DNA of 27,551 bases. Origin: a virus (Duplodnaviria; Heunggongvirae; Uroviricota; Caudoviricetes; Demerecviridae). The stretch's first letter is position 1. Each line of letters opens with the position of its first letter. Made by a program: the position numbers and the translations under genes. Positions 2,047 to 4,055 of this stretch are shown in pieces. The notes beneath the pieces are model-generated. The model was not told the DNA's origin. It did no database searches and was given only the letters and a program-made list of their open reading frames with translations. The stretch lies in the IMG/VR virus record IMGVR_UViG_3300042566_001359. One strand, given 5' to 3'.

Positions 2047-2276
2047 GAACAATCACGAGTGCACTCGCTGTTAGTTTTTAGTCTCACACGACGACTTACT
2101 GGGGGTACCACCCACGCTAACTGCATCGACCCTAAACTGGAGCACGGTCGCAGGGCATTAGGTTATTGCCTGTGTAGCTCTAGCAGGGGAGAAAGTATTG
2201 GTTCGGCTCTTCAGCCCACCACACGGTTTACGACACTGGGCTTTGTCGACTGCTATAGATTAACGACTGTTGCAGT

Positions 2277-2406
2277 TCGGGGTCGGGTGCTACGGTTCCA
2301 GCGCATGCACCACTTTTAGCGACTCGGGGTCGGGTGCTCCAGTCGAAGCTTTTGCACCACTTTTAACGACTTAGGGTCGAGTGCTCAGTTTGCGATAAGC
2401 ACCACT
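2277..2406. repeat. 47-bp-period repeat: 32-bp hairpin-forming units with 13-15-bp variable spacers
   Basis: GCACCACTTTTARCGACTYRGGGTCGRGTGCT at 2307-2338 and 2354-2385; partial copies at 2277-2291 and 2399-2406. Confidence 0.85.
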
Positions 2407-2649
2407 CAGGGGCCATTTAACGACAATCCGTGTCGGGCCACATTAACGAGGGCCAAGCTCGGGTACGTAAGTGCACCAGGCTGCCAAGACCATTTTACGT
2501 CGGTACCAGATAAGACGGCAGTTTATATAGTAACTGCTCACTAGGCTTACTCATTTCCAGCTAATCACTTTCAGTGGTGGGTCCATCCGGTTTTCGCTTT
2601 CGCTACTAGGCTTCAAGAGTCAGTCACATCCCGGTTTCGCTGGGTTTTC

Positions 2650-2751
2650 ATCCTGACCCTAAGGTACGGCAAGCGGTGATGTGGGAAAATCACGCACACT
2701 TGCTGTGAGGCCTTAAGGTTTCGCACAACTTGCATGTGCTCATCAGAGGGT
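2650..2751 (-). ncRNA. candidate type I hammerhead ribozyme
   Basis: Minus strand: ACCCU-CUGAUGA-GCACA(UGCAAGU)UGUGC-GAA-ACCUUAAGG[46 nt]CCUUAGGGU-C/AGGAU. This gives an intact core, a G-C closed stem II, a 9-bp stem III, a GUC cleavage triplet and a short stem I. Confidence 0.65.
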
Positions 2752-2965
2752 TGGTATCGCATACGGGTAACGATCCCGTCTAGGTACCTTGAAAGGGTAC
2801 TGACCTCACCTGAAGTCGAATGCGATATGTTAAATTAGCCACGCAGGTATTTTACTACTTACCATACGGAACATCGTCCAGATATTACGGGCTAAAAAGG
2901 TTGGGCTGCGACTAGAGTTTGTTCGGTCGCAATCAAGTTGTTATCCCAGCATCGAGTGCTGAGCC

Positions 2966-3323
2966 TCATAACACCCATAAGTTAATCGGCCAACGTAATG
3001 GTCCACACTCAAATCGTAGATATAGGATGCGTAAGCTAAGTTTTCTGGCTTAAAGGTTGCTGCCTTTCCATACTTCGCCGCTTACTCCAACAGAGCCTAT
3101 CGCCGTAACAATTATAGTTGCGCTACTAGATTACTGCCACCAGCAAGTAGCTGGCCGATTAACTTATGGATTCATAACACCCATAATAAAGTACCCAGCA
3201 AATTCTTGCAGAGTTGCAGCATTCTACCACTTTCGCCGTCTCGGCCGAGACCTACCGGTGGGGTTAATCTGCATACATCTAACAAGCAAACCAGGCTAGC
3301 ACTGTCTGGGTACTTTATTATGG
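2966..3323. repeat. two adjacent 18-bp perfect inverted-repeat pairs plus a 15-bp direct repeat
   Basis: 2975-2992/3152-3169 (CCATAAGTTAATCGGCCA) and 3181-3198/3306-3323 (CCATAATAAAGTACCCAG). TCATAACACCCATAA at 2966-2980 and 3172-3186. Confidence 0.9.
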
Positions 3324-3411
3324 ACACTAAGGGCTGTGGCTCGGTTCCCGAAGGTATTCCCCACAATTAAGACGCTGCTTGACGCGACCGCTGTCACCCA
3401 ATCTATACTAT

Positions 3412-3441
3412 ATTATAACATACAACAGTTAACATAATCAA
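3412..3441 (-). promoter_or_regulatory. sigma70 promoter at the head of the ncRNA candidate
   Basis: Minus strand TTGATT-18-TATAAT with TGn extension; +1 about 3405. Confidence 0.7.
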
Positions 3442-3483
3442 GATAATATTTAGTAGCCTTGTTAACTGCTGTTGTCTTATCGC

Positions 3484-3525
3484 TTTCTAAGTATATATTA
3501 TATCAAACTCAATTAACAAAATCAA
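3484..3525 (-). promoter_or_regulatory. sigma70 promoter, no ATG ORF downstream
   Basis: TTGATT-17-TATAAT. The -10/leader GATATAATATATACTTAGAAA is identical to that of the 3679-3720 promoter. Confidence 0.7.
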
Positions 3526-3678
3526 CAAAAGAATTCCAATCGTTTCCTCAAGACTAGCTTCGCAGGTGTGTCGACGTACAGTGACTGGTTAGTGATTGCG
3601 GCTGCTGAGGCAGAACTGGCACCGGTTGATTAATCACACGGTATTCATTAAGCCATTCCCGACTGGGTTCTTTGTTAA

Positions 3679-3720
3679 TTTCTAAGTATATATTATATCG
3701 CGAAATGGGTCACAGATCAA
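3679..3720 (-). promoter_or_regulatory. sigma70 promoter, no ATG ORF downstream
   Basis: TTGATC-17-TATAAT, with the same 21-nt -10/leader as 3484-3504. Confidence 0.7.
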
Positions 3721-3743
3721 GTGTAGATTTTGTGACCCTAAAC

Positions 3744-4055
3744 TTAAGCAAGTTCTGCAACCAGACGCTCAAGCACTTCGTGGTTGGCCTTTTCCAGGCT
3801 TTCAAACACTTCTGGAGCAACGCCGCAGGCAAGTGCCAGCTTGTCCACCAGTTCGGCTTTACGCACACGGTGTTGGCCGGTGGCCTTGGTTTTGGCCACG
3901 TACACGCCTTCGCGGCTGAGTTTGGCCACTACACTGCGTACGGTTTTGCCCAGGGTCTCGGCCAGTTGTTCCACGGTCTTGCCCGACTGGTAGCCTGTGA
4001 CGAGTTCCACGGTTTGCTCGGGAGTGTAGTTTTGAGGGGTTGCTTTAGTCATCAT
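3744..4055 (-). CDS. A2-like pre-early DNA-binding protein, paralogue 1
   Basis: NYTPEQT...GKTVRSVVAKLSREGVYVAKT...ESLEKAN. RBS AAAGGA before ATGATG (4055/4052). The longer ORF from 4331 is upstream read-through. Confidence 0.8.
   Translation of the reverse strand: MMTKATPQNYTPEQTVELVTGYQSGKTVEQLAETLGKTVRSVVAKLSREGVYVAKTKATGQHRVRKAELVDKLALACGVAPEVFESLEKANHEVLERLVAELA

Follow-up and report, generated by a model that had tools for sequence, protein, structure and literature searches.

Twin stem-closed RNA domains at one slot of a conserved non-coding RNA operon in T5-like phages: candidate cargo cassettes

The twin domains and their closing helices

The stretch of DNA analysed here, 27,551 nucleotides (nt) of the IMG/VR virus record IMGVR_UViG_3300042566_001359 (hereafter the window), comes from lake water and belongs to a siphovirus, with genes for terminase, portal, a protease-capsid fusion, major tail protein and tape measure. 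Judged by terminase, its nearest cultured relatives are T5-like Vibrio phages, at ~50% identity. From ~3745 to 2010 on the minus strand we found no convincing open reading frame, and this region appears to hold a non-coding RNA operon, arranged as a 5' element, a slot, a 3' element, tRNA-Glu, a hammerhead-like core, ~0.6 kb of further RNA and a terminator (Table 1; all features of the twin domains, the scaffold and the operon are on the minus strand). Our subject is the slot, which in the window is occupied by two RNA domains, A and B, lying one behind the other and each closed by a long stem of its own.

Stem A (3323–3306 with 3198–3181) and stem B (3169–3152 with 2992–2975) are paired at 18 of 18 positions and enclose 107 and 159 nt, respectively. 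Both open with CCAUAA and close with UUAUGG, and the 15-mer UUAUGGGUGUUAUGA occurs in exactly two copies, at 3186–3172 and 2980–2966. By our own arithmetic, a perfect 18-base-pair (bp) inverted repeat spanning no more than 250 nt is expected about 1e-4 times per 27.5 kb of random sequence; two are observed, and they are adjacent. The coordinates of the two perfect stems with shared end signatures given in the original prediction, made from the letters of the window, are thus confirmed and far above chance. Its remark on the inner 12 bp also stands: they are not the same in the two stems, yet pair perfectly in each. A stretch of 371 nt folds at -131.9 kcal/mol (z = -5.0), and none of 100 shuffled versions was equally stable. 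When G-U pairs and flanks are counted, helix A grows to 24 contiguous bp (3329–3306 with 3198–3175). In the predicted fold the first copy of UUAUGA, which is self-complementary via G-U, pairs with the second, and helix B with its flanks thereby reaches ~28 bp, interrupted by two bulges.

Table 1. Features of the RNA operon in the window, in the order of transcription.
Feature	Position	Strand	Description
Sigma-70-type promoter	3412–3441	-	TTGATT, 18-nt spacer, TG-extended TATAAT; ends a few bases before the 5' element
5' element	3331–3399	-	GGGUGACAGCGG, variable hairpin, CGUCUUAAUUGUGG, loop, CCGAGCCACAGCCC; three-way junction
Cassette A 5' flank	3324–3330	-	UUAGUGU; pairs with the first GGUGUUA, extending stem A
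Cassette A	3181–3323	-	18-bp closing stem around A-type cargo
Hairpin of cargo A	3292–3304	-	CAG/CUG stem, 7-nt loop with palindrome GCUAGC (3300–3295); candidate symmetric kissing loop
Palindromic hairpin of cargo A	3238–3251	-	GUCUC-GGCC-GAGAC
First GUGUUAUGA copy	3172–3180	-	3' flank of cassette A; also 5' strand of outer helix B (predicted fold)
Cassette B	2975–3169	-	18-bp stem, B-type cargo opening with conserved hairpin CCAGC-UACUU-GCUGG
3' element	2900–2977	-	GG-GUGUUAUGAG, H1 2965–2945, AUAACAAC 2944–2937, UUGAU, H2 2931–2907, GCCCAAC
tRNA-Glu(UUC)	2752–2826	-	Found by ARAGORN; under the Rfam tRNA threshold, even at E <= 10
Hammerhead-like core	2650–2751	-	CUGAUGAG 2746–2739, stem II, CGAAAC 2723–2718, long stem III, GUC ending 2655
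Strong terminator	2047–2011	-	

An exact scan of viral contigs for the 15-mer returned mostly chance matches (the downstream element is found at 16 of 118) together with six loci that have a long stem at the same place, and these revealed a conserved element upstream of the stem, the 5' element. Loci of relatives (given L numbers below) were found via this 5' element alone, hence without bias towards the stems or the signature at the 3' side: 47 viral loci, 66 viral loci when the pattern was relaxed (most of them already in the first set) and at least 120 metagenome loci, at least 187 instances in total. The A family comprises at least 35 distinct sequences (alignment A1), in which 14 of the 17 pairs of the closing stem have changed on both sides while 99.2% of the cells remain paired, a level that none of 500 shuffles matched; if the partner strand is slid by 1–3 columns, pairing falls to 34–50%. 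Selection on pairing, which had been proposed from the two stems of the window, is therefore borne out by compensatory change at these 14 of 17 pairs. The B family (alignment A2: L262, L277, L266, L122 and L015) keeps stems of 18–21 bp despite arms that differ at as many as six or more positions; here the helices were judged by their length in each sequence, the gap placement of MAFFT being inconsistent between the two arms.

The closing core of the cargos is 17–19 bp long. Outside the core, past a 1x1 mismatch, the 5' flank of the cassette pairs in relatives with the start of the 3' element, and this flank helix brings the total to 22–26 bp, with a mode of 23, in most distinct cassettes, so that helix length is near constant across cargos of 105–215 enclosed nt. 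The sequence of the flank helix follows the type of 3' element, with pairing retained: UAGCA/UGUUA in the main group, GUUAA/UUAAC in L133 and UUUAC/GUAAA in C-type cassettes that precede the GGUAAACC variant. Scaffolds devoid of an insert lack a complementary 5' flank, therefore the flank travels with the cassette. From these alignments the repeated GUGUUAUGA appears to be a scaffold strand that is paired by each cassette's own 5' flank. Wobble pairs are tolerated (helix 2 of A1 has 13 G-U cells against 2 unpaired ones) and through them CCAUAA drifts to YYAUAA while UUAUGG is kept. The predicted conservation of the end motif consequently holds on one side of the stem, with UUAUGG kept in 36 of the 47 cargo cassettes among the loci listed, and only loosely on the other, where CCAUAA is exact in 18 of the 47.

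Slot contents and the scaffold around them

Between the same 5' and 3' elements the slot holds at least 78 distinct contents. At least 20 of these are shorter than 30 nt, i.e., there is no insert, at least seven are a bare hairpin of 38–44 nt and at least one is a tRNA-Glu(UUC), confirmed by ARAGORN (L152). Contents of 130–180 nt (at least 34 distinct) consist of the A-type, in two subgroups, and the C-type, those of 180–230 nt (at least five) are B-type and those of 230–300 nt (at least nine) are related to B. Among the instances listed, two cassettes share the slot only in the window (A+B) and in the L251/L292 lineage (A+A), and these are also the only ones with a second copy of GUGUUAUGA. 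The junction in L251/L292 reads GGUGUUAUG-UAAGCAAC-CAUAA, so that a complete cassette unit (5' flank, domain, 3' flank) is followed by a second.

Comparison of close relatives reveals where the exchanges take place. L251/L292 is 97.3% identical to the window over 3760–3310; the identity ends inside stem A and is back at 2752 with 84%. In L262 the 5' element matches at 93.8%, after which the alignment passes from 3327 straight to 3167; its only cargo is therefore B, and the same jump is found in one low-depth RNA-library contig from a relative without A. L127 and L145 have a common 5' element, with the slot empty in L127 and filled with A-type cargo in L145, and L131 and L158 differ likewise. 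Within short evolutionary times, cargo is thus acquired, exchanged, duplicated and lost again. Interchangeable cargo RNAs in a conserved frame had been among the readings originally suggested, with an alignment of homologues as the check: the inserts indeed swap between conserved 5' and 3' elements, and near-identical phages differ in the cassette alone. One genome, G004 (IMGVR_UViG_3300043436_004120), has two complete scaffold units ~840 nt apart across the contig ends (92–126 and 99666–99700), one with an empty slot and the other with A-type cargo.

The 5' element is present in at least 98 distinct versions, and its fold is supported by covariation from GAC/GUC to GUC/GAC and by GGAAAGCG/CGCUUCC (alignment A3); model R1 was built for it. 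The 3' element, in 33 distinct versions, has the consensus GG-UGUUAUGAG, hairpin, AUAACAACUURAU, hairpin, GCC(C)A in relatives, and the stems of both hairpins, H1 and H2, covary. The second GUGUUAUGA of the window (2974–2966) is the first strand of this element, its UGUUAU facing AUAACA at 2944–2939, a pairing supported by UAAAC/GUUUU against UUAAC/GUUAU in the variant group and by changes from A to G, which leave a U-G pair. A recognisable 3' element follows in 134 of the at least 187 instances, 42 are without one and 11 are cut off. Among the instances listed, the signature GYGUUAUR is found in 93 and the variant GGGUWAACC in 41, and GUGUUAUGA is exact in 43 of the 64 distinct main-type versions. 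The signature is there with or without an insert, which makes it part of the scaffold and not of the stem domains, and GUGUUAUGA has to be removed from the stem frame to which it had been assigned.

In the 42 instances that have no recognisable 3' element (L128, L144, L153, L159, L167, L173, L174 and others), the 5' element is followed by quite different RNA, and it is therefore a separable leader module. Unpaired CUUAAU/CUURAU is found in both scaffold elements, in the window at 3365–3370 and 2931–2936; UUAA/UUGA is self-complementary with wobble, and the two junctions could therefore contact each other or a second molecule. Two other ideas about the scaffold were set aside: the long-range pairing between 5' and 3' elements given by RNAfold is on inspection not kept in relatives, and a tRNA- or tmRNA-like acceptor, in which the 5' GGGUG would join with CGCCCACCA downstream of the 3' element, is disfavoured because relatives do not keep NCCA in the 3' sequence and ARAGORN detects no tmRNA.

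Cargo A has two hairpins with palindromic loops (Table 1). In relatives the loop hexamer of the first is GCUAGC, GUGCAC, GACGUC, CCUAGG, UCCGGA or UCUAGA, i.e., six perfect palindromes, besides the imperfect UCUAGG, self-complementary via wobble only, and GCUAGA, which has one mismatch; the stem carrying it covaries from CAG/CUG to CUG/CAG to CUU/AAG. The tetraloop of the second hairpin is GGCC in 18 distinct A-type sequences and UGCA in at least six, and L132 and L263 have the same stem with GGCC in one and UGCA in the other. Positions 3 and 4 of the hexamer are adjacent and cannot pair within one chain, therefore lasting palindromy points to pairing between two molecules. Covariation of palindromic loops has been used to support symmetric kissing loops in OLE L9.3 and GOLLD L21a (Kretsch et al., 2025, PMC12286853), and the pattern taken there as a sign of oligomers, loops that covary yet stay palindromic, is found here in both hexamer and tetraloop. 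This suggests that A-type cargo may form a symmetric RNA dimer through its two palindromic loops. The second hairpin is flanked by an internal loop, AGUAG/CGAAAG (3256–3251 and 3235–3230), which we infer to resemble a loop E/S-turn motif. Outside the slot no A-type domain was detected by a pattern scan of 2.9 million viral contigs, which gave 16 true matches, all at the slot, and seven chance ones in coding DNA; nor did nhmmer and blastn find cargo A or B elsewhere in the collected loci.

Excision, display and other readings

What is the role of stalks of such constant length? The explanation that we favour, with somewhat better than even confidence, is that the twin domains are two cargo cassettes in tandem, carried on stalks of RNase III length in the single cargo slot of an RNA operon that is non-coding, promoter-driven and conserved among uncultured T5-like phages from freshwater. 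Bacterial RNase III requires about two turns of double-stranded RNA, and it excises 16S and 23S rRNA from such stems in tRNA-containing operons. The cassette stalk, being two turns long, would have the length recognised by the RNase III of the host and would serve as an excision site, whereby stable RNAs of 110–160 nt with a short duplex handle would be set free; a tRNA in the slot would be released by tRNA-processing enzymes, and A-type cargo would then self-pair via its two palindromic loops. As the cargo is likely to be made from host-type promoters beside the pre-early genes, our guess is that it could have a role in early take-over of the cell or in counter-defence. The near-continuous double-stranded RNA of at least 20 bp to be expected of an RNase III stalk is found in the 22–26 bp helices, and the equally expected maintenance of a flank-formed helix by compensation is found in both A1 and the B family. 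The RNase III idea would agree with the constant helix length and with an operon that contains tRNA and hammerhead, and a tRNA at the slot together with a self-cleaving ribozyme on the same transcript would fit a release function. A circular RNA, made by a ribozyme and a ligase, was considered and dropped: there is no ribozyme match beside the slot, and RtcB and RNA ligase are absent from the five complete relatives.

Several points weigh against excision. The same five genomes have no RNase III gene either, and the host enzyme must therefore be assumed. The at least 20 empty scaffolds and at least seven bare hairpins, of 14 bp, mean that the stem is dispensable for whatever role the scaffold has, and a constant helix length suits a stalk that is never cut equally well. 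UGUUAU has two possible partners, the cassette flank and the downstream AUAACA, and the palindrome argument stands on ~8 hexamer variants and a tetraloop with two states. A wider and more speculative proposal, which we put forward as doubtful, would have the slot as a plug-in site for RNA effectors shuffled by recombination in an integron-like manner, among them tRNA-Glu and a self-dimerising RNA with two symmetric kissing loops. Made from the host-type promoters as soon as infection begins, these would supply decoys or counter-defence functions, with the ~23-bp stalk acting as a recombination-tolerant adaptor and RNase III release signal at once.

If the stalks are not cut, they may be display devices: rigid arms of ~23 bp holding optional domains at a fixed distance and angle, for example to join scaffolds through the loops of cargo A, as in GOLLD or ROOL. 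We consider this possible, if on the unlikely side. A helix length that stays constant whatever the cargo and covarying palindromic loops that suggest intermolecular contacts would both follow naturally, and scaffolds lacking an insert are as expected if the elements are optional and peripheral. The likeness to GOLLD and ROOL (RF01998 and RF03087; PMC12286853) goes further, as these are also phage-borne, lie beside tRNAs, come in part from lake metagenomes and have a conserved part next to a variable part; GOLLD sometimes even has a tRNA in the variable linker, and palindromic loop covariation there points to symmetric intermolecular contacts. However, neither Rfam model matches our RNA, the slot cassette is discrete with a closing helix of ~23 bp, a hammerhead sits on the same RNA, and the multimer, here, would be deduced from loop covariation. 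A tRNA at the very same slot (L152) would normally be cut out, an operon with a hammerhead and a second tRNA site looks built for processing, and a near-perfect 23-bp duplex is expected to be cut in any host that has RNase III, all of which argues against display. Docking of the long stems on a phage Ro60-like protein, in the manner of bacterial YrlA, is in our view very improbable. Y RNAs are likewise closed by a terminal stem and TROVE domains are encoded by two of the five complete relatives, but the three others bear the scaffold without Ro60, and the Ro60 loci (L161/L162) have no A-type copy; nor is there a match to YrlA or any other Rfam family, even at E <= 10, and the stems are perfect and free to vary in sequence, with no conserved bulged helix for Ro binding.

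The repeats could also act as DNA, either as signals or as mobile elements. In T5 a 1.2-kb untranslated region rich in repeats and palindromes comes right after the pre-early genes and is conserved among relatives (Repeat Region 3 with its injection stop signal; Davison, bioRxiv 10.1101/866236; T5 annotation), and since the closest cultured terminases are from T5-like Vibrio phages, cruciforms or protein sites at our locus could be its counterpart. Yet the T5 region holds only palindromes of 17–56 bp, short direct repeats and DnaA boxes, all read as DNA, and model R1 has no match in T5 or two T5-like Vibrio phages, whereas in the window there are RNA-like helices with promoters, tRNA, ribozyme and terminator on the same strand. 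With G-U pairs allowed, 27 cassettes have the longer helix on the transcribed strand and 9 on the antisense strand, while 12 show no difference, and arms that vary freely in sequence are ill-suited to a protein site. This strand bias, the wobble drift, the same-strand operon features and coverage in RNA libraries make a DNA-level role most unlikely. Hardly more credible, and if anything less so, are miniature inverted-repeat transposable elements with the 18-bp stems as terminal inverted repeats and the repeated 15-mer as target-site duplication. In their favour are the perfect terminal repeats with a repeated flank, and near-identical backgrounds in which the domains are found or missing at exactly one site; however, the terminal repeats differ between copies with pairing kept, the opposite of what a transposase recognition site would show, the repeated 15-mer belongs to the scaffold and is there without any insert, and A-type domains occur at this slot only, by nhmmer as well as in the contig scan described above.

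Known systems and the rest of the operon

As far as could be checked, the RNA family seems to be undescribed. Against Rfam 15, whose families include Hammerhead, twister, pistol, hatchet, HDV-like, YrlA, GOLLD, ROOL, 6S and tmRNA, the twin region and its frame (2890–3410, 521 nt) have no match at E <= 10; in a search of the whole window no match reached gathering score, 2200–3900 giving one chance microRNA match only, and in the loci of ten relatives there are only tRNAs and weak Hammerhead_3 matches, outside the slot. For 1.5 kb searched by blastn against 50,697 phage records the tRNA was the sole match, model R1 detects no 5' element in T5, nor in Vibrio phages D254 and 234P1, the closest relatives in culture, and in the literature we found no paper that links Demerecviridae with hammerheads.

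The nearest functional parallel to the excision proposed here is the rRNA operon, where the mature RNA also lies inside a helix of about two turns formed by its 5' and 3' flanks, tRNAs are co-transcribed and freed by other enzymes, and transcription is by the host RNA polymerase. In contrast, the slot cargos are 105–215 nt and not rRNA, the stalk sits in a defined scaffold slot with cargo exchanged between genomes, and cutting is presumed by analogy. RNase III sites in T7 early RNA are bulged hairpins that are cut once and enclose no cargo, unlike the stalks here. Species 1 and 2 RNAs of T4 and the stable RNAs from the tRNA region of T5 resemble the cargos in being structured phage RNAs of ~100–150 nt from tRNA-containing precursors. 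The T4 RNAs, however, have tRNA-like acceptor stems cut by RNase P and not 23-bp helices, blastn against the phage records gave no homology to either group, and the slot RNA lies beside the pre-early genes and not in a tRNA cluster. Release of stable RNAs from an operon by flanking stems is thus known; what is new is a fixed slot with cargo that is swappable and sometimes doubled.

Phage non-coding RNAs are poorly known, and even the large ones that have been described, such as GOLLD and ROOL, are still without a function. Since one frame recurs in more than 180 metagenomic loci with different, no or double cargo, it reveals which parts are scaffold and which are payload. The proposal can be taken to the bench at three points: RNase III should excise at a helix whose length is fixed, cargo A should dimerise through its palindromic loops, and a tRNA should be equivalent to a stem-closed RNA when placed in the slot. 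Our data also suggest that in T5-like phages the untranslated region following the pre-early genes can serve as an RNA factory as well as a DNA signal, and a natural scaffold that takes arbitrary structured inserts with a closing stem of ~23 bp could be of use in RNA expression.

Transcription would start from sigma-70-type promoters, three in number, whose -10 hexamers end at 3692, 3497 and 3412, and the spacing from promoter to GGGUG of the 5' element is the same in relatives. RNA-library contigs span 3316–3488, which includes the 5' element, with a depth of ~180 in run X23, although DNA contamination is possible. Over the twin region itself there are no metatranscriptome contigs save the one low-depth contig of a relative without A. 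The RNA runs were read as assembled contigs, which do not show RNA ends, and the contig end at 3316 is also the point where relatives diverge, therefore it is most likely an assembly break. In relatives, too, tRNA-Glu and then the hammerhead often come after the 3' element, whereas L152 has this tRNA in the slot instead. The hammerhead-like core directly behind the tRNA is conserved in relatives with a covarying stem II, and Rfam Hammerhead_3 matches at best with E ~0.9, in two relatives.

Several smaller observations concern the same operon. The hammerhead-like core has a large insertion in stem III, and its stem I is merely ~3–5 bp. The T-loop of the tRNA-Glu is AUCGUUA instead of UUCRANY, with AUCGNNA in several relatives; the tRNAs of this RNA unit that were checked by ARAGORN (window, L152 and L251) are all tRNA-Glu(UUC), and others look alike by eye. 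Metatranscriptome contigs 87–95% similar to 2099–2190 and 2430–2570 have a depth of more than 10,000 in run X23, from freshwater, and lakes may therefore contain very large amounts of the RNA's downstream half or of a related RNA. At 2270–2410 on the minus strand there are tandem CGACCCYRAGUCGYUAAAAGUGGUGC-loop-GCACC modules in two to three repeats. Of the two further strong promoters upstream (3500–3700, minus strand), the first drives an RNA beginning ...CAGUCGGGAAUGGCUUAAUGAAUACC, which is conserved in L085, L014 and L023, is 97% identical in L251 and may be a separate small RNA. At 1922–1951 on the plus strand, a promoter of perfect consensus (TTGACA, 18-nt spacer, TG-extended TATAAT) is directed towards the end of the RNA gene at which the terminator lies.

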